Positions 3,144 to 56,433 of a stretch of DNA of 64,000 nucleotides are shown piece after piece. The stretch comes from Thermodesulfobacteriota bacterium (lineage in GTDB: Bacteria > Desulfobacterota_D > UBA1144 > Nemesobacterales > JAJCZQ01). The position numbers and the translations under genes are program-made. Location: the NCBI GenBank assembly GCA_965215275.1, contig OZ244044.1, forward strand, positions 864,001 through 928,000, in the 5' to 3' direction. Numbering within the stretch: position 1 is the stretch's first letter; each line of letters begins with the position of its first letter. The notes beneath the pieces are model-generated. The model was given only the letters and a program-made list of their open reading frames with translations, was not told the origin of the DNA and did not search any database.

Positions 3144-5154
3144 ATGAATATGAACATCTTATTTAGAATAATCCCCCCCCCCATCTAAGTTAATAATATC
3201 CTTTTTCTTTCTTCTGTGCCTTGTATCCATTGAGGCATATGGCCAGCTCAATAACTGTGACACCAGTACGACCGCTTTCAATGATCCCTTATACGGCTGT
3301 CAGTGGCATCTGAAAAATACAGGACAGCTCGGGACTGTAACTGCCTCTGGAGAAGATATAAACATAGAAGGGGTATGGGATGATAATGTATTTGGTGCCG
3401 GAATTAACGTGGCGGTGGTAGATGATGGTATGCAAACGGGTCATGAGGACCTTGCTGATAATGTAAATACCAGCCTGAACCACGATTATTCAGGGAACAA
3501 TGACGTATACGACCCTTCAAAAACTCGTGGAACACGTGTATCGGGAGTTATAGCAGGAGCGGGAGATAACAGCCTTGGAGTAAGGGGCACAGCACCGCAG
3601 GCAGGCATCTATAGTTATAATTTAGCTGGTAACTTGAATAACGCTAACGCAAAGGATGCCATGATCCGTAATAGAGATACAACGGCTGTATCCATCAACA
3701 ACTGGGGACCGAATGACCTGCCTCTTCTCAGGGAGACTTCATCAGAGTGGGAGGAAGGAGTGGGAACGGGTATAAGTGAAGGGTTTGGTGGTAAAGGGGT
3801 ATTTTACGTGTGGGCTGCTGGAGATGGCAGCCGCGACCAGGCTAATTTTGATGAGTATTCCAACTACTACGCTGTAACCACCGTATGTTCGGTAGATGGA
3901 GAAGGAAGTAATAGTTCTTTTTCAGAAGAGGGAGTAAATCTTTGGGTATGTGCTCCAGGTGAACGTATAACAACTACTGATAATAACGATAGATATGTTT
4001 TTGATGCAAGAGGGACAGCATATTCAGCAGCGCAGGTTTCAGGTGTGGCGGCACTGATGAGAGAAGTAAACGGTAACCTTAGCTGGAGAGACCTTAAGCT
4101 GATACTTGCAGCTTCAGCTCGTAAGAACGACGCTTCTGACACGGGCTGGGAGACAGGAGCACATAAATATGGTTCTGATTCAGAAAGTTATAATTATAAT
4201 CCCAAATATGGTTTTGGTGTGGTAGATGCTGAAGCAGCAGCAGGACTTGCTGAAAGCTGGACCAATGTTCCAATGATGAGAACTCAGACCGCTTCCTCTG
4301 GGACTATTGATATGGCAATCCCCGACCACAACAATGGAGTAGACGGAGAAGCTACTGCCATACTGACAGTACCAGATACTTCTCTTTCTTTTACAGAGTT
4401 TATAGAGATAGAGCTTAATTTCTCTCACACATACTTTCCGGACCTGAACATACAGATAACCTCTCCTGACGGTACTGTGTCGCAACTTAGTAATAGATAT
4501 ATAGCAGACGCTTTATCATATGTAGTTAGTAATACACTCACCAGGAGCGACTTTGCGTACACAAACAAAACTCATCGTTTTGGTTCAGCCAGACACCTTG
4601 GAGAAGGTCCTGCCGGAGAATGGACTTTGAGAATATCTGACACTGCTAATGGAGATTCAGGGACTTTACACTCATGGAGCATTAAAGCCTATGGACATAG
4701 TACGGCACCAAGCTTTGACGGTGAGACGATAGATGATCAGGAGTATTTTACGGGTACAGCAGTAACAGAAACGCTGCCTGCTGCAACAGGAGGGGATGGA
4801 ACATTAACATACAGTTTAACACCTGCATTACCAACTGGATTGAATTTTAACGCATCTACCCGAGAGATAAGCGGAACACCCACCAGTGTATCATCGTCTG
4901 ATACTTACATGTATACGGTAACAGATGATGATGGGGATATGGCTGAGTTGAGTTTCACGATCAGGGTAGTGAATCGTCCTGCTCCGTTACCACCAAGACA
5001 AACACCAGGTACTGATGCTGGCGGTGGAGGAGGATGTACGATCTCCGATCAGAACGAAGCTGTTCCTGATATGCTCACAGCATTGGCATCTCTGATGCTG
5101 ATACCCTTATCAGTATTGATCAGAAGGAAGATAAGGTCTCAGATAAGTAATTAA
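3144..5154 (+). CDS. Secreted kexin/furin-like S8 subtilase homologue with P-domain, Ig-like domain and GlyGly-Cys/TM C-terminal anchor; frameshifted at a poly-C tract, catalytic residues degenerate
   Basis: The frame of ORF 3409 is open back to 3172 and encodes a signal peptide and DPLYGCQWHLKNTGQ...VAVVDDG; ATG 3144 joins it only with C9 or C12; GEWTLRISD P-domain; GGGGGC+TM+RRK tail. Confidence 0.8.
3173..3182 (+). repeat. poly-C (C10) tract in the 5' coding region of the subtilase
   Basis: ATCCCCCCCCCCATCTAA read directly. Confidence 0.9.
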
Positions 5155-5409
5155 TAACTTACTCCTTTCCAGGACACTTAACTATCTGAGATATTTCCGT
5201 CAGATATAATTTCGTTAAAAACATCGTCTTTGTTCATTTGGAATAAGTTACATATACTATTCCCAGTTGTTGCTTGATATTCATGTAAGAATATCAGTAA
5301 CAATCTTTTAAGATTCTCTCTAACCTCAAGTTCACTCCACATAGGGGACCTGTCAGGAACGGGTTTGCGTCTCGATCAGACGTTTAAGTCTTATAACAAA
5401 CGAGGGGTT

Positions 5410-5664
5410 TCAATCAGCAGTTTCGTTCATTCTTTTGGTATAGTACTTTTTCATAGTATCTGTAGAAATTTCAATACTGCATGTTTCATCTATATCAAGC
5501 CCCATACGTGCCTCCTGCCAAGGTTCCTCATAGTGTGTGAAGTTCTAGGTATCGTGCATCGTAACCGCCATAAGCCGCCCATACATCATCTAAATGAAGT
5601 TTAAATATCCTTTGGCAGATCTTCTGCTGACGGTTCATTAAATGACGTTTCTATTGTTTTAAAA
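5410..5664 (-). pseudogene. 3' half of the Panacea gene split by the TnpB element
   Basis: Minus strand reads FKTIETSFNEP...LDDVWAAYGGYDARYLE / THYEEPWQEAR...TMKKYY with two small frameshifts; continues the 5' half at 6986-7214. Confidence 0.85.
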
Positions 5665-5732
5665 GGGAATTATAGTGAATAGTTGACAGAAAGAAAAATT
5701 GATAAACAGGTCAGAAATGGTAGTATTATAGT

Positions 5733-6956
5733 ATGGTTAGAACGATTACAAGAACTGTAAAGGCAGATAGTGTTTTTCATAAAAGGCTGGATGAATTCTT
5801 ACAACAGCTTACCGACCTGTATAACGGAGCTTTATATCACAGATTAAGATCTTATGACTGGTATGAAAAAACTATCTCTAAATACGAACAGTTTAACGAA
5901 CTAACTGAGGTCCGAGAGCAAGACAAGGAATTTGAAAAGTTTAATGTTACAGCTCAAAGGAGCGTTCTGGAAAGACTGGATAATGCATACAGTCCTTATT
6001 TGAACTATTTAAAGAATAAAAAAGCAGGTAAGAAGGTCAGGAAGGTGGGCAGACCAAAATACAAAGGTCCAAACAGACCTGTCAGAAGTTTTGAAACAAA
6101 CAATTATAAAAATATTGAAAAGATCGGCAGAAGAACGTATTTAACGATAAAGGGAGTTGGCAGATTATCTTTCAAAGGTAGTATGCCTGACGGAGTTGTT
6201 TTAAAACAACCTAAAACAACAATAAGGATAGTTAAAACAGCTATAAGAATAAAGATCCAGTTTCTATGTAAGATTACCAGCGAAAAGAAAAGACCTATGG
6301 ACAGGTCCATAGGGATCGATCTTGGAATTATAAACAGAATGGCTTTTTCAGATGGAACTAAAATACCAGGAGTTCGGTTGAATAGAAAGGAACTGAAAAG
6401 AAAGCAGAGAATTGTTTCAAGAGCGGTAAAAGGTTCTGACAGCAGAAAGAAGAAAGTTTTATCGTTAGCAAAGGAATGGGAACGAACTACTGATCGTGAA
6501 AATAATGCTATACACAGATTAACAACAGAGATTGTAAAGAAATGTAATCATATAAAATTGGAAGATTTAAAGATTCAAAATATGGTAAAGAACAGGTACT
6601 TAGCAAAATCCATAACGGAACAGCAATGGGGGAAGATTAAAACACAACTTGACTACAAAGCCGAGATAGCTGGAGGCAGGCTGGTTTTAGTTAAACATCA
6701 TTATACAACAAGAGCTTGTTCTGAATGCGGAAAGGTAAATCCAAAACTGCCTCTGTCTGAAAGAGTATTCAGCTGTATGTATTGCGGTTATTCAGAAGAC
6801 AGGGATATAAATGCAGGTAAAAATATCAATACTCTTAATGAAGGAGACTTCATATCGGGTGGGAATAAGGTAGAAATACTCCCGATGAGTGCTAAGAGTA
6901 TCAGATCAAAAGAGATCGGGGATAGAGGAACTCTGCACTCAGAACAGTACGAGTAG
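5733..6956 (+). CDS. tnpB: RNA-guided endonuclease TnpB
   Basis: RuvC-I GIDLG, RuvC-II LEDL, Zn ribbon CSECG...CMYCG, RuvC-III DRDINA; N-terminal LYN..L helix. Confidence 0.93.
   Translation: MVRTITRTVKADSVFHKRLDEFLQQLTDLYNGALYHRLRSYDWYEKTISKYEQFNELTEVREQDKEFEKFNVTAQRSVLERLDNAYSPYLNYLKNKKAGKKVRKVGRPKYKGPNRPVRSFETNNYKNIEKIGRRTYLTIKGVGRLSFKGSMPDGVVLKQPKTTIRIVKTAIRIKIQFLCKITSEKKRPMDRSIGIDLGIINRMAFSDGTKIPGVRLNRKELKRKQRIVSRAVKGSDSRKKKVLSLAKEWERTTDRENNAIHRLTTEIVKKCNHIKLEDLKIQNMVKNRYLAKSITEQQWGKIKTQLDYKAEIAGGRLVLVKHHYTTRACSECGKVNPKLPLSERVFSCMYCGYSEDRDINAGKNINTLNEGDFISGGNKVEILPMSAKSIRSKEIGDRGTLHSEQYE
6850..6951 (+). ncRNA. candidate omegaRNA scaffold overlapping the tnpB 3' end
   Basis: Potential pairings ATCGGG/CCCGAT, TGAGTGC/GCACTCA, AGAG/CTCT; terminal 19-mer repeated at 26699; boundaries are estimates. 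Confidence 0.5.
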
Positions 6957-6985
6957 TTGTTTGTCAGCTATTCACTATAATTCCC

Positions 6986-7214
6986 TTTTAAATCCAGAAC
7001 GTTTGTATTTTTTGTACAAACTTCTTACAGCAGGACCATGTATCCATGCTTCGATCGGGGCGTCATACAGTTTTCTGTTAAAAAATACTAAATGCCATGC
7101 TTGGGCATAATATACCAACTTCTGCAGTTTTAAGTTGGTAATGTGTCTGTCAGACTTATTGGACAGGTATATAAAATACTCTGCAATATCGGATAACTCC
7201 TGATATTTAGCCAT
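6986..7214 (-). pseudogene. 5' half of the split Panacea antitoxin gene
   Basis: MAKYQELSDIAEYFIYLSN...LKLQKLVYYAQ...EAWIHGP, cut off at the TIR. Confidence 0.88.
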
Positions 7215-7274
7215 AATATGTTCTTACAAAATAATCTTATAATACAATAAAGTACGTAACTTCCTTGCTTTAAG

Positions 7275-7658
7275 CTACTGTATTTCAGACTTGTTTTTTT
7301 CTGTTTTGTCTTCCTCGGACATTATCCGCTTAATGGCCTCATTGTACAGCTCTATATATTCCTCAATGCGGTTATGTATGGTTTTCTCCATTGTCTCAAG
7401 TTTGTCCGCATATTTATCGGTAAGTTTTATCTGAAGTTCAGCAAGCTGTCTGAGCTCCTCTTTCGAAGTGTTCTGCTCCAGTACTTCAGTGATAATCTCA
7501 ATAATTTTAGGATACAGATACGGAGCATTGTCCTGCATCTGAGCTTCAAGAGAGGATTCCCAGGTAAAGTACTTGTGCATAGCGAAGTTAAAAGGGTCTA
7601 TCTTCATACTTTTTCTTAGCTCTATTATCTTCTTTATAATATCAGCGGTATCTTTCAT
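7275..7658 (-). CDS. hypothetical helical protein
   Basis: 127-aa ORF with GGTG upstream; lies upstream of the split Panacea gene. Confidence 0.5.
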   Translation of the reverse strand: MKDTADIIKKIIELRKSMKIDPFNFAMHKYFTWESSLEAQMQDNAPYLYPKIIEIITEVLEQNTSKEELRQLAELQIKLTDKYADKLETMEKTIHNRIEEYIELYNEAIKRIMSEEDKTEKNKSEIQ

Positions 7659-7753
7659 TTCATCACCAGCGTTATAAGACTATAAACAATTTAACACTCT
7701 TCTGATACCATACAACCATAAACTAAAAATAATCCGGTTATTCCAGCGACCGG

Positions 7754-10138
7754 TTAATATACGGTCACTTCTGGCTCCTCCGAGGTCAATTTCAACTTTT
7801 TACCCTTGTGAAACAAAGAGACTTCTTCACCTTTGGTCAATCTGTACTTTACTTTCTTTCTTGTGATCTCCACGCTTATCGTGCAACTTCTGAACGTTAC
7901 GGAAAACTTCAATTTCTTTATCTGTGGAGGGATACTGGGGGCAAACCCGAGCGTTCCTCCGTTACTTGTCATTCCGGCAAAACCAAAAACAAACACCATC
8001 CATGTCCCCGCCATAGAAGCGATGTGGCATCCATCTTCAACGTTACCGGACACATCGGCAAGGTCCATCAACGCGGATTGTCCCGCGTACAGGAACGATC
8101 TGTCATGATACCCTATCTTTGAAGCCATTATGCTCTGAATTGGCACTGACAGAGAGGAATCACCCGTTGTGATCGGATCATAGTAGTCAAAGTTTTTCTT
8201 CATATCGTTTTTGGAAAACCTGTGGTTCAGAAGGAACATCGTCAGTACAACGTCAGCCTGTTTTATCACCCTATGTCTGTAGATCACTAACGGGTGAAAG
8301 TTCAGCAGCAGGGGATACTTGTCCACAGGAGTGTTCTCAAAGTCCCATTCCTCCTTGCTGAGAAACTCGTCGTCCTGAGGATGTATCTTCATTTTCTCAT
8401 CATAGGGGATGTACATGCTGTCCACTGCCTTCTTCCAGATATCCAGTTCGGAAACGTCGAATTTCGTCTTATACACAAGGCTTTCAAATATCTCAGGTTC
8501 CGTTCTCTGCATCTTTTCGATGGTTTCTATCGCAAACCTCATATTCTCCTGTGCCATTAAGTTCGTATACAGATTGTTGTTAACCACCGTGTTATATTCA
8601 TCGGGTCCCGTTACGCCATTAATACAGAACTTTCCATTCCTCTTTTTTGAATAAAATCCCAGGTCCGCCCAGAGCCTTGACGTCTCCACCAGCATTTCCG
8701 CACCGTACTCAAAAAGGAAACCATTGTCCCCGGTGGCATTAACGTACTTCTTCAGTGCGTAAATTATATCGGCGTTTATGTGGTACTGAGCGGTGCCCGC
8801 TGCATAGTAAGCAGAGGCTTCTTCGCCGTTTATCGTTCGCCACGGGAACATCGCTCCTTTCTGATTCAGTCTTCTGGCGTATTCCCTTGCCTTATCCAGC
8901 ATGCCGTGGCGAAAGGTCAGAAGGTTCTTTGCTATCTTGGAGTTCGTGTAAACAAGGAAAGGCATAAGGAATATCTCTATATCCCAGAAGTAATGCCCTT
9001 CATACGCCTGTCCGGTAAGTCCCTTGGCAGGAACCCCCGCAGTCTTGACCATTGCGGTCGCCTGACAAATGTTAAACAGATTAAACCTTAACGCCTGCTG
9101 AAGTTGCTCCGTGGACAGGTCGGAATCCGCCCTCGACTTGTAAAGCATGACCTCGACGTCGCTTCTTTTCCAGAAATCATCAAGGTACTTCTGCTGTCCC
9201 TTGAGCAGGTCGTCAAAACCGAACTTCTTCGTTCTGCTGAGTGCCCTTTTTGCCCTGACGGCGAGTTCGTCCGGAGTGTGTGGCGCCGTTATCGTGGTGT
9301 GATAGGTCATGTATTTGGTCAGATCGATAGGTTCTCCCTTCCGGGCGTCGACCATATAGGTAACCTCTCCCCTGTTCTCTTCACATCCGCTTGAGTGAGA
9401 ATACGCACATCTGGTCTCAAGTTCATGATCTATACCCGCTGCAAGTCCCAGGCCGCTGTTCTTTGCAAAATGGCATAATACCAGTCTTGTATCATCCGCA
9501 TAATGCAGTGAGGGCTGAAGGACCCTGTATCCAAACCTTCTTGACAGCCTCGGGTCTGATTTCTTTTTATTTCCGTTGTCCGGACAGATGCTGTTGTTGA
9601 CGATATCAGAGGTTATGACCACCGGTGCATCCGCGTTCAGTACGGTCACGCTGTAGGAGATCGCAGCAAGATGACGATGTTGAAAAGATATGAGCCGTTT
9701 TGATCTGATAAGTACCTTTTTCCCTGAAGCCAGCTGCCATATTACCTCTCTGTCGAGCGTACCGCGCCTCATGTCCAGTACCCGTTCAAACTTCAGAAGT
9801 TTGGCCGTGGGAAGATAAAAAGGCTCGTCATCAACGTAGAGCCTTATTATCTTTGAATCCGTTACGTTTATGATCGTCTGACCGGTCTGGGCAAATCCGT
9901 AGGCTTTCTCACCATAGATTATCGGCCAGGATTCGTAAAATCCATTTACAAAGGTCCCGTTTTCAAAGCAGGGTTTTCCTTCTTCAAAAACGCCTCGCAT
10001 TCCAAGATAGCCGTTGGACATAGAAAATATGGTCTCAGTGCGGTTGAGCAGTTCAGGATAAAACTTCTTCTCTATGATCTTCCAGGGGTCCGGGGGATAG
10101 ATGTGTCTGGGCAGCTCGGTTATTCTTCCATGTATCAT
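7754..10138 (-). CDS. Glycoside hydrolase family 65 disaccharide phosphorylase (trehalose/maltose/kojibiose type)
   Basis: NGYLGMRG, AKGLTGQAYEGHYFWD, GPDEY, KQADV, GDSSLS. Confidence 0.93.
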   Translation of the reverse strand: MIHGRITELPRHIYPPDPWKIIEKKFYPELLNRTETIFSMSNGYLGMRGVFEEGKPCFENGTFVNGFYESWPIIYGEKAYGFAQTGQTIINVTDSKIIRLYVDDEPFYLPTAKLLKFERVLDMRRGTLDREVIWQLASGKKVLIRSKRLISFQHRHLAAISYSVTVLNADAPVVITSDIVNNSICPDNGNKKKSDPRLSRRFGYRVLQPSLHYADDTRLVLCHFAKNSGLGLAAGIDHELETRCAYSHSSGCEENRGEVTYMVDARKGEPIDLTKYMTYHTTITAPHTPDELAVRAKRALSRTKKFGFDDLLKGQQKYLDDFWKRSDVEVMLYKSRADSDLSTEQLQQALRFNLFNICQATAMVKTAGVPAKGLTGQAYEGHYFWDIEIFLMPFLVYTNSKIAKNLLTFRHGMLDKAREYARRLNQKGAMFPWRTINGEEASAYYAAGTAQYHINADIIYALKKYVNATGDNGFLFEYGAEMLVETSRLWADLGFYSKKRNGKFCINGVTGPDEYNTVVNNNLYTNLMAQENMRFAIETIEKMQRTEPEIFESLVYKTKFDVSELDIWKKAVDSMYIPYDEKMKIHPQDDEFLSKEEWDFENTPVDKYPLLLNFHPLVIYRHRVIKQADVVLTMFLLNHRFSKNDMKKNFDYYDPITTGDSSLSVPIQSIMASKIGYHDRSFLYAGQSALMDLADVSGNVEDGCHIASMAGTWMVFVFGFAGMTSNGGTLGFAPSIPPQIKKLKFSVTFRSCTISVEITRKKVKYRLTKGEEVSLFHKGKKLKLTSEEPEVTVY

Positions 10139-12636: not shown

Positions 12637-13140
12637 TTAACGATTTAGATTCTGCCTTTCTATCTTTGCTGTATTGTATCTATTACGATAATACTCTTTC
12701 ATTGATACAGCAGTAATTCTTGCATCTGAAACTTCTTTACAGTCAAGTTTTCCTCTTGCATCCTGCCAAGGTCTTTCGTAATGAGTAAGTTCTTCTAAAT
12801 ACCTTGCGTCAAAACCACCATAAACATCCCAAACTTCGTCAAGTATTTCCTTGGTCTTTTCAGAGAAGTTAAAATTGTTTACTACATTTACTTCTATTCG
12901 TCCAAATTTAAACTTATTGTATTTTTTCCACAAAGCATATACAACTGGGCCGTGTATCCACGCTTCTATAGGGTCTTTGAATAACCGTTTATGGTTAAAT
13001 ACCAGATTCCACGCTTGAGCATAATAAACTAACTTTTGCAGTTTTAAGTTAGTCATATACTTGTCATCCTTGTTGGATAGGTATATAAAGTACTCCGCTA
13101 TATCAGATAATTCTTTAGATAATTTTTTAGATTTAGCCAT
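12637..13140 (-). CDS. Panacea (DUF4065) antitoxin
   Basis: Close paralogue of 2433-2936 with the same motifs. Confidence 0.88.
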   Translation of the reverse strand: MAKSKKLSKELSDIAEYFIYLSNKDDKYMTNLKLQKLVYYAQAWNLVFNHKRLFKDPIEAWIHGPVVYALWKKYNKFKFGRIEVNVVNNFNFSEKTKEILDEVWDVYGGFDARYLEELTHYERPWQDARGKLDCKEVSDARITAVSMKEYYRNRYNTAKIERQNLNR

Positions 13141-17108: not shown

Positions 17109-17947
17109 TCTTAAGTGGACTGTCAGGTTCCGGTAAAAGTACGGCAATAAAGTTCCTGGAGGATATTGGCTACTTCTGCATTGATAATCTTCCAACTCCC
17201 TTAACGACCAAGTTCATAGACTTCTGCAAAGACTCTGATGCTGATTTTACAAAAATAGCACTGGGGATCGATATCAGGATTCAGGACAGAGAAACCTTAA
17301 AGGACTTCCCTAAACTCATTCAACTGATCAAACGGGAGATCGCAAACGTCAAGATCATGTTTCTGGAATCAACGACCGAAGTACTGATAAAAAGGTATAA
17401 AGAGACAAGAAGAAAGCATCCACTGTCCAACGATGGAGATATAGTTGAAAACGTGGAAAAAGAAAGAAAACTGCTTGCGAGAATCAAAGAGGCTTCCAAC
17501 TACTTAATAGACACTTCCGAGTATAACGTTTATGAACTGCGAGATCACATTAACTCTATATTCCTCAATATAGATACGGACAGAGTATCACTTAGCATAA
17601 CGTCCTTTGGCTTCAAGCACGGCTATCCCATAGACGCCGATATAGTCATGGATGCACGGTTCTTACCTAACCCTTACTTTATTGATTCCTTAAAGGACCT
17701 GAACGGTAACGATCCAGAGATAAAGGAGTTCGTGCTGTCACGCAGTGAAACCGGAGATTTTATTGAAAAAATATCCGACTTACTTACGTTTTTAATTCCA
17801 AAGTATAAAAACGTGGGAAAATCTTATGTAAATTTAGCGATCGGTTGCACCGGGGGTAAACACAGGTCCGTTGTAATTGCAAATGTGCTTGCAGAAAGCT
17901 TCAAACATATTGAACCTCTGGTAAAACACAGAGATATTAGTAAATAG
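17096..17947 (+). CDS. rapZ: RNase adapter RapZ/YvcJ
   Basis: GLSGSGKS, IDNLP, RFLPNPY, GCTGGKHRSV. Confidence 0.95.
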   Translation: MEILILSGLSGSGKSTAIKFLEDIGYFCIDNLPTPLTTKFIDFCKDSDADFTKIALGIDIRIQDRETLKDFPKLIQLIKREIANVKIMFLESTTEVLIKRYKETRRKHPLSNDGDIVENVEKERKLLARIKEASNYLIDTSEYNVYELRDHINSIFLNIDTDRVSLSITSFGFKHGYPIDADIVMDARFLPNPYFIDSLKDLNGNDPEIKEFVLSRSETGDFIEKISDLLTFLIPKYKNVGKSYVNLAIGCTGGKHRSVVIANVLAESFKHIEPLVKHRDISK

Positions 17948-18432
17948 GGAATTTTCCTTTTTAGCTGACATACTCCACTTTACTCTTTTTTTTCTTCTTT
18001 GTTATCTTCGTCAATTTCTTCGTCATAAGATCCTGGTTCAAAACAGAAAAACCAACTTTATAGTCACACTGCAGTCCAGAACTTGCTCCTCGTCCCTTAA
18101 AGTCATGTTAAAATTGTAGAGTTAGAACTAAAAGTGTATTACAGGAAACTAATATTCCTCTGCTTAAATGGTTATTAGCAGTGTATTTAATAACTACTAA
18201 CTTAAAGGGAGTGCAAATTAGAAGGGGATTTACAGGTAACACAGAAGACAAGCCTGGTTCTTGAATCATGGAATAAGAAAATCATTAAGCAACCAGTCAG
18301 ATACAAAGACGTTAGAACTTATTGAGATTGATTAGACTTGTATGGGCGGTTTAGAAAAGAATAAACACAAATGCGAGGAGTTAATGAGCTGAAAAGGTTG
18401 ACTAATCATTCATGGTTTGATATAAGTTTATT

Positions 18433-19026
18433 ATGGAACGGAAGGGTCTTAAATGTATAATAGATAGTTTGTTAACTGTTTTTATATTTATATACCTTGT
18501 GCTTGGTATATGTGTTTTTGGTATAGCGACTTATTATAATTATTATGAGGAATTAGAAAAAAATTTAGTTGCGTTTGTATTATTAGCAACGTCAATAGTC
18601 GCTGCTGCATTTTTATTTATCAGAATATATATAGATAACCAATTAAGTATAAAGGAGAAGGAAATGTTGAAAGAATATTCAGACAAGGTTGAAGAAGTTA
18701 AAAAGGATATTACTGAAAGATTGACTTTTCAGTTGTCTTCTCAGTTGTCTTCTCAGTCGGAAGATATGAACAAAAAACTTGCTTCTCAATCGGAAGATAT
18801 GAACAAAAAATTTGCTTCTCAATTGGAAGATATGAACAAAAAACTTGTTTCTCAATCGGAAGATATGAACAAAAAATTTGCTTCTCAATTGGAAGATATG
18901 AACAAAAAACTTGTTTCTCAATCGGAAGATATGAACAAAAAATTTGTTTCTCAATCGGAAGATATAAACGAATTGATTAGAGTTTTCAATGATTTTATTA
19001 AGAGTAAAAGAGAAAATAGCAGTTAG
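18433..19026 (+). CDS. 2-TM membrane protein with tandem-repeat coiled coil; paralogue of 47279-47764
   Basis: Shared RIYIDNQLSIKEKEMLKEYSDKVEEVKKD; TTGACT..TATAAG promoter-like sequence upstream. Confidence 0.7.
   Translation: MERKGLKCIIDSLLTVFIFIYLVLGICVFGIATYYNYYEELEKNLVAFVLLATSIVAAAFLFIRIYIDNQLSIKEKEMLKEYSDKVEEVKKDITERLTFQLSSQLSSQSEDMNKKLASQSEDMNKKFASQLEDMNKKLVSQSEDMNKKFASQLEDMNKKLVSQSEDMNKKFVSQSEDINELIRVFNDFIKSKRENSS
18751..18969 (+). repeat. 33-bp coding tandem repeat (about 6.5 copies, SQSEDMNKKFA)
   Basis: Visible in DNA and protein. Confidence 0.9.
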
Positions 19027-19215
19027 TAAACAAGGCTAATAAAAACCCAGTAATTATCCTGTTACCTTTTCTCTGATAATTATCAGAGAAGTCTGTATCT
19101 ACTCATCTATTTTGTATATTTATATAGAAGGTAATGATGTTCAAAACCAAAATGCTCATCTCGAAAGAGCAGAATAAATATAGGTAATTACCCTGTTTAG
19201 CTGACATACCCCAAT

Positions 19216-19425
19216 CTACTCTTCTTTTTCTCCTTTGTTATACTCGTCAATTTCTTCGTCATAAAACCTTGGTTCAAAATCCGTTTTACCCATCAGGATC
19301 TTAACAACATCATCAAATACTATTTCATTCATTTCAGGTACTTTGCCTTGCTCTTTATACCTTTCAAATTTACTTTTCTTTGACATTTTGTTGGGATTGC
19401 CAGAAGGATTGATTTTATCTTTCAT
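19216..19425 (-). CDS. small IS-terminal passenger protein
   Basis: Stop lies just inside the TIR; its 3' end is duplicated at about 17980-18045 (FEPGSYDEEIDEDNKEEKKE*). Confidence 0.55.
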   Translation of the reverse strand: MKDKINPSGNPNKMSKKSKFERYKEQGKVPEMNEIVFDDVVKILMGKTDFEPRFYDEEIDEYNKGEKEE

Positions 19426-19457
19426 TTCTTTAATTATTTATTCAATAAATAAAACCA

Positions 19458-20408
19458 TTATGTTTTCTTGTCATTAACCATATGTACTAAACCCCTTTGA
19501 CCTTTTTCCAAACATATCTGCAGAACTTGTGTTGTGAAGACTGAATATTTGATTGACCACGGACCTTCTTGTGAATATTTTATGTTCGTTAATGGAACTT
19601 CTTGTAACAATTTAACTGTTTCCGGTCTCATATTAACTAATAAAATATTATTATCAGGAAGTAAATCAGCTATTTTAATATCTTCTATTCTTTCATCAAT
19701 AGCTAAAATACAGTCCCTAATGGTGTTACATTTTGTACTGTTATTGCAATATTTATTCAGTAATTTTTTATATGCAGGTGGAATATATATTACAAACGGT
19801 CCAGAGAGGTTTTCCATCTCTTCCTTCATATTTGATATGTCTTTTATAATACCATCTGGAGTCTTAGCAGAATCTGACCAGTTCTTTTCACCTTCAAATT
19901 TAACCTCACTTCTGTGTGGATGATTTATATAGCTGTAAAATTTTTTGCCTGCATATTCACAAGTCTTGTTGGTAAATAACATCTCTTCTAAGGACTCAAG
20001 TACCTTTTTTGCGGCTCTTTCCGTCTTGGTAGTATCTAATACTAATCCCCTATTTCTGTTAGTTTCCAATTCTCTGGTATTCAAAGAATAAAGTTCTTCA
20101 TCAGTAGGCAGTGGGATGGTGTCCATGTCCCCTAAATTATAAACCAATCCAGCATTCTTAAGATCGTTTATCCCACTTTCTTCGGTTTCCACATCCCTGA
20201 TAACCTTGTCTAATTTTATCCATTCATCCTTTCTTAAATTTGCATTACCAACTTGCTCAACATAGTAGTTCCTAGTATCACTTCTATCTCCACTTCCTTT
20301 ATACACGCTAATATACGCTTTACAATCATCCCCAATCCAAGGACGTAGTTTGTGTAAATATTTAGATTGTATTAACTTATTAACATCTGCAGCTGTTATA
20401 TTCATCAT
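19458..20408 (-). CDS. orphan phage major capsid protein (HK97 fold, linocin/encapsulin-related), internally shortened
   Basis: LRPWIG, NANLRKDEWIKLD, GINDL, LDTT..ERAAKKV.E.LE.MLF, YSYINHP, GPFVIYIP, LPDNNILLVNM, GLVH; paralogue of 55085-56104. Confidence 0.75.
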   Translation of the reverse strand: MMNITAADVNKLIQSKYLHKLRPWIGDDCKAYISVYKGSGDRSDTRNYYVEQVGNANLRKDEWIKLDKVIRDVETEESGINDLKNAGLVYNLGDMDTIPLPTDEELYSLNTRELETNRNRGLVLDTTKTERAAKKVLESLEEMLFTNKTCEYAGKKFYSYINHPHRSEVKFEGEKNWSDSAKTPDGIIKDISNMKEEMENLSGPFVIYIPPAYKKLLNKYCNNSTKCNTIRDCILAIDERIEDIKIADLLPDNNILLVNMRPETVKLLQEVPLTNIKYSQEGPWSIKYSVFTTQVLQICLEKGQRGLVHMVNDKKT

Positions 20409-20450
20409 TTTCTTTCTCCTTATCCTTTCTTACATTTTATTTTATTTGTA

Positions 20451-20708
20451 TCAAACATCTAGCTTCAGAAAAGGCATAGTCTTATGACTAGCTTCCTTTG
20501 TATTTACACTTTCGCTAAAATTAAAGTAATACCTATTTTGCTTCAGGCAACCCCTTCTTACGAGATTTTTGTTAATTGATATAAATTGTCTTTCATCTCC
20601 CCACATTAACCTTTCAAAGTGTTTCCTGCATCTCTCTTCCGTATAAAAGTTCTCTGTAAACTCATAAAAACTAATTCTTTGACGGGCTCTTTTTGATAAT
20701 CTACCCAC
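20451..20708 (-). pseudogene. N-terminal stub of IS1595-family transposase fused to unrelated sequence
   Basis: ISFYEFTENFYTEERCRKHFERLMWG parallels ISLVKLFRKFPSDAVAEEWFVKQRWG of 49430; ends before the Zn ribbon. Confidence 0.7.
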
Positions 20709-20807
20709 AATAGTGTAATCTCTTTTTTTATAAGTAACTACAATACATACGCTACTTAGGGGTTATCAACTAAAAAGGATAATTACCAACAAACAAGAGA
20801 AGAAAAA

Positions 20808-24072: not shown

Positions 24073-24434
24073 ATCTTCGTTAATTTTCTACCTTCCCTCT
24101 GATATGAACTGGATTACAGTAAAAATGATCAGGATCTTTACGGTACTGGTCGTACATCGGCTGGAAGGAATTCAAGGTTATGGAATTGTAACGGTTTTTG
24201 ATAATTATACAACAGGATATTAAACCTGTTTTTACCAGACCACACACTTGCGATGAAGATCAGTTCCAGACATAAAGTCCCAATATACAACCCTTTATAT
24301 GGGAATTATGTATAAAAAAAAGAAGGGGACTATATACTTTAGTACCCAAAATGAATAATAAATGCCTTACGGCATTTGATATCTTTATATATTAGTATAT
24401 GGATTAAAAAAGTATTTTAAAGGAGAAAATGTAA

Positions 24435-31290: not shown

Positions 31291-33267
31291 ATGAGTGATA
31301 AACTACAAGAATTTCAGAACAACGCAGGCAAACTTATTAGAGAGAAAAATTGGGATGAACTAATTTCGGAATGTACTGAAATTATACGATTAGAAACTGA
31401 TGAAACGATAAAAGCACTAATATACAACTACCGTGGCTATGCATACAATGAGAAGGGAGAGTATGACCTTGCAATTGCGGATTATACCGAGTCAATAAAG
31501 TTAAAACCGAGTGCTTCTGCATACAGCAATCGTGGCAGTGCATACAATTGGAAGGGGGATTATGATAGTGCGATCAAAGATTGTACGGAGTCAATAAAGT
31601 TAAAACCAAATGATTCAGCATACAGCAACCGTGGTTGTGCATACACTGGAAAGGGAGATTATGACAGTGCGATCAAAGATTATACCGAGTCAATAAAGTT
31701 AAAACCGAATGCTCCAGCATACAGCAACCGTGGCAGTGCATACAATTGGAAGAGAGATTATGACAGTGCGATCAAAGATTGTACGGAGTCAATAAAGTTA
31801 AAACCGAATGCTCCAGCATACAGCAACCGTGGCAGTGCATATAATGGAAAGGGAGATTATGACAGTGCGATCAAAGATTTTAATGATGCTATAAAATTAG
31901 AACCGAAAAATGCAAGTTTCTACAACAATCGCGGTGCTGTCTATTTTTATAAAGGGGATTATAACCGTGCAATTGAAAATTTTGACAATGCTATAAATTT
32001 AGAACCGGAAAATGCAAGTTTCTACAATAATCGCGGCAATTCATATTTTCATAAAAGGAATTATGCTCGTGCAATTGAAGATTATACGGAGTCAATAAAG
32101 TTAAAACCAAATGATCCAGCATACAGCAACCGTGGCAGTGCATACAATGAAAAAGGAGATTATGACAGTGCGTTCCAAGACCTTATGAAAGTTGTTGATA
32201 ATAAAGTATTAAAGTCAACATATCCGCTTGTTTATATAACTTCTAAAATTAAATACATAACTTCAGACCATGAAGAACAAAGCAAGCTATTTAAATATTT
32301 CTCCAAATTGAGAACTGCAATAGAAAAAATACGAAAAAAAATATTTGATAAATCAAAAAACACTGAAGAGGTCGCACACTATACGTCTCTTCATGTGCTG
32401 AAGTGTCTTGCTAACAAAAAGTCTTTTCGACTCTACAATGCAGCATATATGAACGACCCTGAAGAAGGGTGGATTCTTTTTGAGATAATGAAAGACAAAT
32501 TTAAAATGGACGTGAAAGAATATTTCTACAAAAGAAATGCAGAAAAGTTCAATCTTTCTCCAGCATATATCGGCAGTTTTGTCGAAGTAACTCCGCCAAA
32601 ACCGGAAAAAGACGAGTTGTTTTTCTGGTGCACGTACGGAAAACATGATAACGAAAAAGCGACGGGAACTTGTCTGATATTCAAAACAGGACAGTTTGCC
32701 AAAGAAGTTTCTCAAGTAATAGGTACCATGTCCCAATTACAAGGAAATAAAAATACTGAATCAGAACAAAAGCCCCCACCAGAACTTTATAAAGTTTTCT
32801 ATAAAAATGACATTGAATATGAAGAAGATATGTTAAAAGCTCTGGAAGAGTTAGCACTAGCGCTACCTCTTGAAGACATAAAGGAATTATGTGATAAACA
32901 TGCAAACAAAAAAGAACTTATAATCAGACTTGTGCAGGAAATGCTTGACAGTATCCGTTTTCTCTTTAAAGCAAACCATTACAAAGAAGAGCGAGAGGTC
33001 CGAGTTGCTAAAATGTTTTATGATGTGAAACCTGAAGCAGCAGAATTAGAGCATACAGATGGTAAAGAACTATCTGAACATAAAGTTGACATGAAACAAA
33101 TCCCCCCGAGGTCTTATTTGGAAATGCCAAGTAATATCCTCCCCAGAGAAGTAATTCTCGGACCTAATTCAAGCAACATATCCAAATGGAGGCAATTGTT
33201 GAAGGAAAAAGGAATAAATGCTGAGGTTAAAAAATCTAATATTAAATTTGGGAACAATCGTCAATAA
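31291..33267 (+). CDS. TPR-repeat protein with DUF2971-like C-terminal domain
   Basis: About 8 TPRs (AYSNRG.AY..KGDYD.AI.D); HYTS, RLYNA.YMNDPEEG, FK..HY.EEREVR, ILGP. Confidence 0.8.
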   Translation: MSDKLQEFQNNAGKLIREKNWDELISECTEIIRLETDETIKALIYNYRGYAYNEKGEYDLAIADYTESIKLKPSASAYSNRGSAYNWKGDYDSAIKDCTESIKLKPNDSAYSNRGCAYTGKGDYDSAIKDYTESIKLKPNAPAYSNRGSAYNWKRDYDSAIKDCTESIKLKPNAPAYSNRGSAYNGKGDYDSAIKDFNDAIKLEPKNASFYNNRGAVYFYKGDYNRAIENFDNAINLEPENASFYNNRGNSYFHKRNYARAIEDYTESIKLKPNDPAYSNRGSAYNEKGDYDSAFQDLMKVVDNKVLKSTYPLVYITSKIKYITSDHEEQSKLFKYFSKLRTAIEKIRKKIFDKSKNTEEVAHYTSLHVLKCLANKKSFRLYNAAYMNDPEEGWILFEIMKDKFKMDVKEYFYKRNAEKFNLSPAYIGSFVEVTPPKPEKDELFFWCTYGKHDNEKATGTCLIFKTGQFAKEVSQVIGTMSQLQGNKNTESEQKPPPELYKVFYKNDIEYEEDMLKALEELALALPLEDIKELCDKHANKKELIIRLVQEMLDSIRFLFKANHYKEEREVRVAKMFYDVKPEAAELEHTDGKELSEHKVDMKQIPPRSYLEMPSNILPREVILGPNSSNISKWRQLLKEKGINAEVKKSNIKFGNNRQ

Positions 33268-35139: not shown

Positions 35140-35168
35140 ATTATACTTGTATCCCAACCGAATGTCAA
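35140..35168 (-). promoter_or_regulatory. consensus sigma70 promoter
   Basis: TTGACA-17 nt-TATAAT on the minus strand, just upstream of ATG 35130. Confidence 0.8.
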
Positions 35169-35227
35169 CAGTATTTCCCTTTATGGCAGGTTATGTGTTT
35201 AATCCCTTTTAAGAACAGTATTGCAGC

Positions 35228-35523
35228 CTACTAGTCTAAATGACAATTCTACTGGTCTAAATGACAATTCTACTGGTCTAAATGACAATTCTACTGGTCT
35301 AAATGACAATTCTACTGGTCTAAATGACAATTCTACTGGTCTAAATGACAATTCTACTGGTCTAAATGACAATTCTACTGGTCTAAATGACAATTCTACT
35401 GGTCTAAATGACAATTCTACTGGTCTAAATGACAATTCTACTGGTCTAAATGACAATTCTACTGGTCTAAATGACAATTCTACTGGTCTAAATGACAATT
35501 CTACTGGTCTAAATGACAATTCT
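35228..35523. repeat. 21-bp tandem repeat x14 (CTACTGGTCTAAATGACAATT)
   Basis: Near-perfect head-to-tail copies with no spacers. Confidence 0.97.
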
Positions 35524-35553
35524 GCTGTTCATAAGTGGCATTTCAGCAAACAA

Positions 35554-36465
35554 CTACATAAAAATAACCTTATCCACCGGTAATTCAGGATGCACTGCAA
35601 TATCAATTACCAAAGAGAGCATTACTGCAAGCATATAAATTATGGACGCCGTAAACGCCTCTCCATAGCTCTTACCGTCATAAACGCTTTTTACGACCTT
35701 GTATTCAAAGTAGGAACCCACTATCAATGCAAATATAGCAAAATAAGCAGATGCTAAACCCGTCAGCCAGAAAGAAAGAGTTAAAGGGATCAAGGTCAAT
35801 GAATATAAAAGTATCAATATATTCGTATACCTGGCACCAAAAGCCACGGGCATTACAGGTATTCCGGCCTGCTTATACTGATCCTTGTACTTCTGTGCAA
35901 GTGCCCAGAAATGAGGAGGCTGCCACAGCATCATAAAGATAAAAAGAATAAGCACGTTAAGATCAAGTTCAGGACTGACGGCACTGTAACCGATCAGTAC
36001 CGGTAACGCTCCAGGGATACCTCCGAGTATAGTTCCAAAAGGGGAATTCCTTTTTAAAAAAAGCGTATAGAGGATCGTATAACTCAGTACGGCAAGAAGG
36101 ATCAGAACTGCATTTACGTAATTTAAATAGTAAAGAGAGATAAACAGTGAAACAAGTATCATCAAAACGGAAACCGTCAGAACGTTAGTGGTACCCAGCG
36201 TCTCCAGAGCCTCCACGCGGCTTGTCAGCCTTTCCATCTTTTTATCTATGTTCCTGTCAAGAAGGTTGTTCAGAACCGCGGAACCTGCAGCACTTAACAG
36301 CAGGGATATTATCCCGAACAGCGTAAAGTAGAGCGACGGTATGCCCTTTGCAGCTATCACCATACCGGTGTAACCCGTGAACGCCACGCTCGTTATTATT
36401 CCCGGCTTGGAAAGCAGGAGGGCGGAGACGGCGATCTTGCCCGGGCTGGTCCTTGGTTTTTCCAT
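35554..36465 (-). CDS. ctaB: protoheme IX farnesyltransferase
   Basis: KPGI, DRNID..M.R, GGIPGALP, WQPPHF. Confidence 0.93.
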   Translation of the reverse strand: MEKPRTSPGKIAVSALLLSKPGIITSVAFTGYTGMVIAAKGIPSLYFTLFGIISLLLSAAGSAVLNNLLDRNIDKKMERLTSRVEALETLGTTNVLTVSVLMILVSLFISLYYLNYVNAVLILLAVLSYTILYTLFLKRNSPFGTILGGIPGALPVLIGYSAVSPELDLNVLILFIFMMLWQPPHFWALAQKYKDQYKQAGIPVMPVAFGARYTNILILLYSLTLIPLTLSFWLTGLASAYFAIFALIVGSYFEYKVVKSVYDGKSYGEAFTASIIYMLAVMLSLVIDIAVHPELPVDKVIFM

Positions 36466-55084: not shown

Positions 55085-56104
55085 TTAGCTCATGTGTACT
55101 ATACCAATCGGGTCATTTGCGTTCGAATGTATCTGCGGAACCTGTATTGTAAAGACTATATATTTTGTTAACCACTGAATGTTAGTTAACGGAACCACTT
55201 CTAACAATCTAACAGTATCCTTAGACATATTAACTAATAGAACATTATCAGCTGGGAGTAAATCAGCGATTCTAATGTTGCTTATTTCTTTTCTATCAAT
55301 AATATATTTCCTGATAGTATTTCTTATTTTCTTGTAATATCTATCCAATACAGTAGCATATGCTGGCGGGATATACATTACAAACGGTCCATAGAAATGG
55401 TTGCCTATCATTGCTTCTTTCATACCTAATACATCTTGTATAATACCATGTTCAGTCTTATCAGGAGCTAACCAATTCATTCCACCTTCAAAATTAGCCT
55501 CCGTATTCCTGTTCGGATGATTTATATAGCTGTAAATATCTCGACCTGCATATTTATAAGTATTGTCGGTAAATAATATCTTGTCTAAGGACTTATATAT
55601 CTTTTTTATGGCCATTTCCACCATTATGATGTCTATTGCAACCCCTAAACTTCTGTTGTTTGCCAATGCTCTGATATTAAGGTTGCAACAAGAGTAAGTA
55701 ATAGGTAACGGTCCCCTATCTAGTTCGTCACATGGTGGTACACCATCCATGTGAAGTTGAGTTGCAAGAGCATCCCTAATATCAGACCATTCAGACACTG
55801 TATCCACCATACCCCCTAAATTACGAACCAACTCATAATTTATAAGATCATTTATTCCGCTATGGTAATCCTTCTTTTTAAAGTCTTTTAAACACCTATC
55901 TAATTCTGCCCATTCGGCCTTTCTGAAAACTGCGTTACAAGTTTGCTCATCAGAGTAGTTTTCAGTATCTTTTCGGTCCCCAGTTCCTTTTTTATCATAC
56001 ACTTTAATATACGCTCTACCATCGTTCCCAATCCAGGGACGTAGTTCGTGTATACTTTTAGATTGTATTAACTCATTAACATCCACATCTGTTATGTTCC
56101 CCAT
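55085..56104 (-). CDS. phage major capsid protein (HK97 fold, linocin/encapsulin-related)
   Basis: LRPWIG.DGRAYI, FRKAEWAELD, LPITY, YSYINHPNRN, HFYGPFVMYIP, LPADNVLLVNM, IQVPQIHS, GIVH. Confidence 0.8.
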   Translation of the reverse strand: MGNITDVDVNELIQSKSIHELRPWIGNDGRAYIKVYDKKGTGDRKDTENYSDEQTCNAVFRKAEWAELDRCLKDFKKKDYHSGINDLINYELVRNLGGMVDTVSEWSDIRDALATQLHMDGVPPCDELDRGPLPITYSCCNLNIRALANNRSLGVAIDIIMVEMAIKKIYKSLDKILFTDNTYKYAGRDIYSYINHPNRNTEANFEGGMNWLAPDKTEHGIIQDVLGMKEAMIGNHFYGPFVMYIPPAYATVLDRYYKKIRNTIRKYIIDRKEISNIRIADLLPADNVLLVNMSKDTVRLLEVVPLTNIQWLTKYIVFTIQVPQIHSNANDPIGIVHMS

Positions 56105-56132
56105 TTTCTTTCTTCTTGTCCTCCTTTATGTT

Positions 56133-56433
56133 CTATTTTTCTGTATCAAATTCTCTTGCTATACCTACAATTTCCCCAATGTGTTTCTGTGTTATTTCAT
56201 TGTCGTCTTCAGGCTTATCTAAATATCCACCACCTATAGAAATAAGTGCGTCTCCTTTCTTGATCGTCTGTAAAACTCCTGTAATTGCATACACTTGGTC
56301 TTCAGAACAAGGAAACCATACCTTGACTTTATCGTTAGCTGAATAGGCGTCCTTTTATTTTATTTTGTGTTTTTAAATCCTCTGACTTATCACGCGTCAC
56401 ACAAAACCTGACTTTAATCGTGTTGTAAACCAT
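56133..56433 (-). pseudogene. decayed phage head-decoration-like gene upstream of the capsid
   Basis: RBS AGGAGG; MVYNTIKV, then a frameshift to DAYSANDKVKVWFP...VYAI...GD.L.S.G.G.L...IVGIARE. Confidence 0.5.

Follow-up and report, generated by a model that had tools for sequence, protein, structure and literature searches.

A predicted RNA-guided nuclease gene, tnpB, between IS1595-type ends: a cassette likely moved in trans in a Thermodesulfobacteriota genome

Based on the analysis of a 64,000-nucleotide stretch of contig OZ244044.1 (the window), it was concluded that the 1321-bp element at window positions 5665-6985, with tnpB as its sole gene, is a non-autonomous cassette of the IS1595 type, likely mobilised in trans by an IS1595 transposase that another part of the genome encodes. 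Judged from its sequence, the TnpB is predicted to be an RNA-guided nuclease, and the G or TG directly 5' of the left target duplication is likely its TAM. We proposed that the IS1595 transposase inserts the cassette at A/T-rich sites, with the guide written anew, and that TnpB cuts TAM-bearing empty alleles, so that repair spreads or restores the insertions; this course of events is considered probable. The features on which the proposal rests are listed below in window coordinates.

5425-5656, reverse strand: 3' part of the Panacea gene with two frame changes, found as tblastn pieces in frames -1 and -2
5655-5656, forward strand: TG, candidate TAM, directly 5' of the left duplication
5657-5664, forward strand: left copy of the 8-bp target duplication
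5665-5688, forward strand: left inverted repeat (TIR) of IS1595 type, 23/24 identical to the right TIR; similar ends occur on IS1595 transposase elements
5699-5726, forward strand: site resembling a promoter (TTGATA, 16 nt, TG-TAGTAT), six bases upstream of the start codon, a consensus match only
5733-6956, forward strand: tnpB, 407 aa, with PF01385 and PF07282 matches
6854-6985, forward strand: predicted omegaRNA scaffold, overlapping the tnpB end and taking in the right TIR
6854-6859/6881-6886 (stem), 6861-6866 (loop GGGAAT) and 6887-6892/6935-6940 (stem), forward strand: predicted scaffold parts, from alignment A1
6962-6985, reverse strand: right TIR, the last six bases of which are predicted to close a pseudoknot
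6986-6993, forward strand: right copy of the 8-bp duplication, the predicted first 8 guide bases
6986-7001, forward strand: predicted guide, composed of the duplication and the right flank; its length is assumed from ISDra2
6986-7214, reverse strand: 5' part of the Panacea (SocA-like) gene, PF13274 at E 7e-11, 70% to the paralog at 12637-13140
19183-20787, reverse strand: decayed IS1595-type element with a transposase N-terminal stub (20451-20708, E 2e-14) and a DUF6260/encapsulin-like passenger

The initial annotation had described tnpB as the only gene between 24-bp inverted repeats flanked by a near-perfect 8-bp duplication, and both statements held. The repeats were identical at 23 of 24 positions with no other gene inside, and the duplication copies (TTTTAAAA on the left and TTTTAAAT on the right) agreed at 7 of 8 bases. 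An empty allele without exactly 1321 + 8 bases was recovered from DNA run X10, in which 5656 was joined to 6986 and 1329 bases (the element and one 8-bp copy) were skipped; the support was one contig with a short side of 53 bases and a likeness of 88. For the window element and for the majority of its sister copies, 8 was the best register of the duplication. The window copy alone would also have allowed a 6-bp palindromic reading with ends of 25 bp, which was rejected in view of the sister-copy registers and the empty site.

The Panacea gene that the element was said to split was indeed found in two parts: positions 6975-7214 matched PF13274 positions 1-46, and the rest of the coding sequence lay at 5425-5593. 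Indels against run X10 were seen in the 3' stretch, and its spread over two further frames shows that the gene has degenerated further since it was interrupted. Three Panacea (PF13274) paralogs were observed within 11 kb (2418-2936, 12637-13140 and 5425-7214), two of them intact and 85% alike.

The features of IS1595 that were examined, i.e., TIRs of ~25 bp (24 bp here), an 8-bp duplication and ends common to PF12762-transposase elements, were all present. The element contains no DDE transposase of its own and is thus not an autonomous IS1595. Its TIRs and duplication set it apart from the layouts of IS200/IS605 (including IS1341) and IS607. A genome search for the Y1 HUH transposase gave nothing inside the element, and the single weak hit obtained (26 bits, at 1883440) had no tnpB gene next to it; PF00239, sought for an IS607 serine recombinase or resolvase, had 0 matches in the genome. 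No IS605-type hairpins were detected inside the ends by folding: the left 71 nt remained unfolded and the right 54 nt gave -2 kcal/mol (z -0.11). Hairpin ends of this type at varying positions had been named beforehand as the sign of a one-off nested insertion; none were found, and both the distance from TIR to start codon and that from scaffold to TIR were nearly constant.

The three RuvC acidic motifs reported for tnpB were located at D196, E277 and D358, together with a zinc finger of two CxxC pairs (329, 348); E277 stands 52 residues before the zinc finger, which is its usual place. The protein matched the ISDra2 TnpB at E 4e-30. The catalytic residues were kept in all intact copies shown, and dN/dS values of 0.15-0.31 were obtained for five copies (first 360 codons); by these ratios, tnpB is under purifying selection. 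Promoter-like consensus sites numbered 6 against 5.6 in shuffles, and a TATAAT was present at equal spacing in the copies of g10, a genus of a sister family in the same order; the tnpB transcript is likely leaderless.

Further copies of the TIR-tnpB-TIR arrangement were looked for in the same genome by BLAST, and seven full copies at different sites were found beyond that of the window, at 85-95% identity. Family A hence comprises eight full copies (85-100% identity) at unrelated sites, and also a 326-bp derivative. Its duplications were 8/8 in four copies, 7/8 in two, 6/8 in one and 4/8 in one, and 8/8 in the derivative. Six of the eight frames were open (404-407 aa) and two were frameshifted. 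Eleven more near-full-length tnpB genes, this being the number found with the window query, constituted families B, C and D (28-45% identity) and were likewise bounded by ends of this type; curation did not extend to a split remnant near 801000-805000 or to some fragments. Duplications of at least 7/8 were recorded for 13 of the 21 curated tnpB elements versus 4 of 420 mismatched left/right pairs. None in family C exceeded 6/8: its elements at 82022, 772121, 1041602 and 1695227 have intact 463-aa genes, good ends and duplications of 1, 4, 6 and 1 of 8, respectively, which suggests rearrangement between copies.

Some tnpB elements are clustered, at 1616480-1619604 and 1624475-1626004, with two back to back, 16 bases apart; within these clusters, one family-A copy lies ~210 bases inside a family-B-type left end. 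Short derivatives with the scaffold and ends and with little or no tnpB were observed at 1742862-1743187, 1953215-1953763, ~494620-494800, 1484743-1484960 and 1886800-1886978. Such scaffold-bearing derivatives could provide guides to TnpB made elsewhere.

The genome was found to contain 28 IS1595 transposase (PF12762) matches and ~196 IS1595-type ends, versus 4 on one shuffled strand. Elements of 1317 bp encoding a 313-aa transposase had the same kind of ends and 8-bp duplications, their ends agreeing with family A at 16-17 of 24 positions; for the intact transposases of 307-326 aa the agreement was 12-18 of 24. The transposase element closest to family A (1100815-1102101, ends 18-21/24) was frameshifted, and among the intact transposases found in this genome, none had ends that matched family A at more than 18/24. 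The g10 tnpB ends agreed with transposase-element ends at 18-24 of 24 positions, and one g10 transposase element (L389) had an end identical (24/24) to three tnpB elements. The two genes were never together: 0 of 32 transposase elements held tnpB and 0 of 29 g10 tnpB elements held an IS1595 transposase. Since no element holds both, movement would have to occur in trans. The earlier proposal of a DDE transposon family that carries TnpB and mobilises it in trans is therefore supported by the family copies, the g10 design, the IS1595 ends and the lack of a shared element.

The initial annotation had also linked the window TIR to the end at 19183. The 18/24 match (to the right TIR; 17/24 to the left TIR) and the IS1595 stub were confirmed, while a helper role was not, because the transposase is only a stub; the 19183 element is a dead relative and not the helper. 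It has no remaining duplication (TAAATATA / AACAAACA), and ends nearer to the window TIR (21-22/24) exist elsewhere. A second copy of the 19183-20787 element was noted at ~55179-56139, 35.6 kb downstream and 74-82% identical, a lone copy of its end at 17944-18043, and further IS1595-type ends in the window at 24323, 25024, 26492 and 50509. Coding tandem repeats were also present at 18433-19026 (33 bases), 31411-32240 (99 bases) and 35165-35605 (21 bases).

The g10 transposase elements L310, L333/L375 and L355 (...GTTGACA ends), from three genomes, had the duplication (A/G)AATGTTT followed by CACGTGAAAC. Their common site is a palindrome, which we take to be a parS site, and these elements are possibly site-targeting.

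Members of IS1595 are described as having ends of 25 bp and duplications of 8 bp and as possibly moving by way of a circular form, with a transposition that "might be replicative" (PMC5704250). If the donor copy is retained, few excision scars may be expected.

Related TnpB proteins, ~40% to that of the window, were found in 23 of 36 genomes of genus g10, so the TIR-bounded design extends beyond this genome. Both ends and the duplication were called in 29 of 63 g10 tnpB loci. A second TIR-borne clade is made up of family D of this genome and 60 matches in 23 g10 genomes, with the same layout in 14 of the 30 loci examined. In a FastTree tree (59/95 rows), the two TIR-borne groups formed separate clades (support 99 and 100) with non-TIR proteins between them, on a weak backbone; because these two well-supported clades are parted by non-TIR proteins, the tree suggests that TnpB was captured between TIRs at least twice. 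Closer to the window, a search with its TnpB protein gave no match in the family's 4 remaining genomes (completeness 80-99%), and a nucleotide search with the RNA region in 120 genomes of the class gave a match in this genome only. A repeat search among the listed matches of 80 loci (genome contigs, up to 48% identity, short pieces) revealed no TIR pair of this kind. The scaffold motif combined with the TIR end pattern was also searched in metagenome contigs; 119 loci were obtained, 0 of which had a TnpB or transposase match, and these were attributed to chance.

These relatives bear on whether the window merely records an IS605/IS1341 element that nested once in an IS1595 MITE. In favour of such an event, most family-A copies have GTCAA in the inner TIR, a word that resembles the right end of IS605. 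The ends hold no hairpins, the other families and the g10 copies without GTCAA keep the layout, and the design is common to two clades and >20 genomes. A one-off nesting is thereby refuted, with next to no probability left to it; nesting of this kind may have been the origin of the captures. GTCAA inside the TIR was likewise rejected as an IS605 right end, the same layout being found in families and g10 copies that do not have the word.

The predicted omegaRNA scaffold was examined in alignment A1, consisting of the window and 36 g10 rows. Covariation was detected in stems 1, 3 and 4, i.e., three helices with double-sided changes at 10 of 23 pairs. Paired cells amounted to 95.9% and 0 of 500 shuffles were as high, for a structure that was drawn from the same sequences and with kin that inflate such scores. 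No Rfam family matched window positions 5000-8000, with E values of up to 1 allowed.

The GGGAAU of the first loop is complementary to the AUUCCC at 6980-6985, the six terminal bases of the right end. In A1, four GGGA/UCCC pairs were kept in 36-37 of 37 rows, and the fifth and sixth in 30 and 23 of 37, respectively. No double-sided change was seen among the pseudoknot pairs of A1; such invariance is expected anyway, as the TIR tip is fixed by the transposase. In family C, the loop GGGAC occurred with a GUCCC end in 3 of 4 elements, which amounts to one double-sided change. Both TIR clades have the loop GGGAA(U), whereas the loops of non-TIR relatives read GGAAC, GGACU or GGGAU, and these relatives end with TCAC after a hairpin that TIR elements do not have.

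In the ISDra2 RNA, the first loop is paired with bases -5 to -3 and, non-canonically, with -6 and -2 (PMC10097598); a preprint describes the pseudoknot as general to IS605 and IS607 RNAs (PMC10690162). The loop-tip complement found here falls in the ISDra2 pseudoknot register, which would make 6985 the last base of the scaffold and place guide base +1 at the duplication. By this analogy, the duplication likely forms the start of the guide. The window guide had no other match of ≥12 bases in the genome. For the predicted guides as a whole, second matches of this length behind the motif were limited to 12-base ones for D714634 (behind GA) and A1624687 (behind ATCA), both differing from the family motif by two bases.

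It was also considered whether the guide might be the fixed outer part of the TIR, so that TnpB would bind or cut sibling IS1595 ends as a form of competition or regulation. Only 9-12 variable bases lie between the conserved GAACAG motif and the TIR, and the ~196 TIR-like ends would provide targets. An active nuclease would, for its part, meet dozens of such targets, the scaffold would, judging by the loop complement, end at the TIR tip, and the motif 8 bases outside the left end would be left unexplained. We regard this arrangement as very unlikely and proceed with a guide that starts at the duplication.

If the guide starts there, the TAM would lie directly 5' of the left duplication copy. 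The base at this position (-1) was G in 8 of 9 family-A elements, and TG was present in 7 of 9; the ninth has TG in a 7-bp register. Among 13 duplication-bounded elements of this genome without tnpB, G was found on 0 of 26 sides, all being A or T (Fisher p 4e-7), and an independent search likewise gave A or T on 16 of 16 control sides. In g10, G preceded the duplication at 27 of 28 distinct sites; it occurred at 7 of 28 when the right side was read in mirror image, and at 9 of 31 transposase elements (Fisher p 8e-8). Families B, C and D had A at -1 in 11 of 11 elements versus 14 of 26 in controls (p 0.007), with TA in 7 of 11. In the second g10 clade, position -2 was G in 10 of 12 elements, and position -1 was a purine in all 12. 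The g10 counts cover the loci in which ends and duplication were called, namely 29 of 63 tnpB, 32 of 63 control and 14 of 30 second-clade loci, the other 34, 31 and 16 being excluded. The flank motif is thus one-sided and differs by TnpB clade. Its place beside the element suggests that the predicted nuclease still cuts empty sites.

According to the preferred scheme, the transposase would act on the TIRs and insert the cassette into A/T-rich 8-mers. A transcript from the left-end promoter would run through the right TIR into the flank; its GGGAAU loop would pair with the AUUCCC of the TIR tip, in place of the GUUCAC/GUUCAA end of IS605, and the first duplication base would become guide +1. 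An empty allele, composed of TG, the duplication and the right flank, would be cut. A filled allele would escape, its right junction having no TAM and its left junction matching the guide at only 8 bases. Repair of the break from the filled allele would spread or restore TAM-flanked insertions, and the motif would consequently be expected at nearly all surviving copies and not at IS1595 insertions without tnpB.

The same motif could also be made at insertion, if the TnpB-RNA complex or a TAM-binding surface steered or licensed the IS1595 transposase next to a TAM. An enrichment of 27 of 28 is high for a product of post-insertion selection, the motif goes with the TnpB clade, and it was kept in the two frameshifted copies of the eight in family A and also in the 326-bp derivative; all three observations would fit steering. 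RNA-guided transposons use dead effectors, whereas the catalytic residues are retained here in every intact copy shown. Further, the predicted guides match no other insertion site, and tnpB and the transposase are never in one element. Steering was accordingly judged unlikely. In its fullest form, TnpB and the IS1595 transposase of another element would be a working pair, in which TAM recognition steers the landing and the duplication seeds the next guide; motif-directed integration and homing would thereby be combined in two genes of a few hundred residues, captured at least twice in the order. This is put forward as a speculation of similarly low probability.

A one-sided target preference of a particular helper transposase would also place a motif at one flank, with TnpB as a plain passenger or with its TAM adapted to that preference. 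The absence of an intact transposase with ends above 18/24 from the matches in this genome leaves room for such a helper, and the first duplication base, T in 9 of 9 family-A right copies, may reflect a preference of the transposase. Transposase elements with the same or close ends are nevertheless mixed at -1: G occurred in the 9 of 31 mentioned above, the five G078 transposase copies had G, G, T, A and A, and the elements of this genome with ...GTTGACA ends had A or T. The dN/dS values argue against a passive passenger. A helper preference therefore appears improbable, and cutting of empty alleles followed by repair is retained as the preferred explanation.

Whether TnpB acts after insertion (homing) or at insertion (steering) can be tested, since the natural insertions number in the dozens and are accompanied by an empty allele, transposase-only controls and candidate helpers whose ends are identical. 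The flanks predict TAMs of 1-2 bases (TG, NG, GR, A) for nucleases of ~400 residues, which, if true, would widen the targeting range. A guide-RNA scaffold refitted to a foreign transposon end would moreover be a prokaryotic parallel to the capture of Fanzor.

That prokaryotic DDE transposons recruit TnpB has been published before. Altae-Tran 2023 describes six DDE-linked TnpB branches (DDE-1 to DDE-6) with inverted ends and proposes that solo tnpB is moved in trans (PMC10691335), and a review names ISL2, IS630 and IS1031 as DDE partners of TnpB (PMC13565253). IS1595 is not named as a partner in the main text of PMC10691335 (0 occurrences) and appears once in a profile list of the supplement; the figures or additional files may name it. 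Our literature searches, judged largely by titles, yielded no paper on a TnpB-IS1595 pairing, and the accessible part of PMC7835479 holds nothing on the mechanism. The 2026 review regards TnpB as rare among prokaryotic DDE transposons, questions its benefit there and calls for mechanistic studies of such systems (PMC13565253). The cassette itself is well supported; its distinctive points are IS1595 as the carrier, a candidate TAM outside the duplication and the duplication as the predicted guide seed.

The elements described here resemble branches DDE-1 to DDE-6 in having TnpB between inverted repeats, ends like those of transposase elements and a proposed movement in trans. The DDE association in that study requires a transposase within 1 kb (PMC10691335), whereas the present elements have none within this distance. 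DDE-5 is the closest in geometry: its TA motif is located 8 bp upstream of the end (PMC10691335 supplement), as is the motif here, and TA was found in 7 of 11 elements of families B, C and D. In contrast, family A has TG (7/9) and the usual catalytic site, and DDE-5 is listed among the branches with a rearranged catalytic site (PMC10691335).

The IS1595 passenger elements MTnSag1 and tISCpe8 share TIRs of ~25 bp, an 8-bp duplication and a passenger gene with the window element (PMC5704250). The passenger differs here in being a nuclease, and the right TIR is predicted to form part of its RNA; the element has no transposase of its own, and its one-sided flank motif is absent from transposase elements.

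ISDra2 TnpB-omegaRNA (Nakagawa 2023, PMC10097598; PDB 8bf8/8h1j) provides a homologous protein, an RNA overlapping the tnpB 3' end, a first loop that pairs with the last element bases, a guide from the flank and a TAM 5' of the site, the RNA, its pairing, the guide and the TAM being predicted here. Unlike ISDra2, the present element has neither an HUH transposase nor hairpin ends, its duplication would form the guide seed, and the candidate TAM consists of 1-2 bases as opposed to TTGAT. Fanzor1 in eukaryotic DDE transposons is likewise a TnpB-family nuclease recruited by TIR/TSD transposons; there, the 5' duplication lies in the TAM, the 3' duplication lies in the scaffold and the pseudoknot is lost (PMC13565253). 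In the elements of this study, by contrast, the motif and the duplication do not overlap, and retention of the pseudoknot is predicted.
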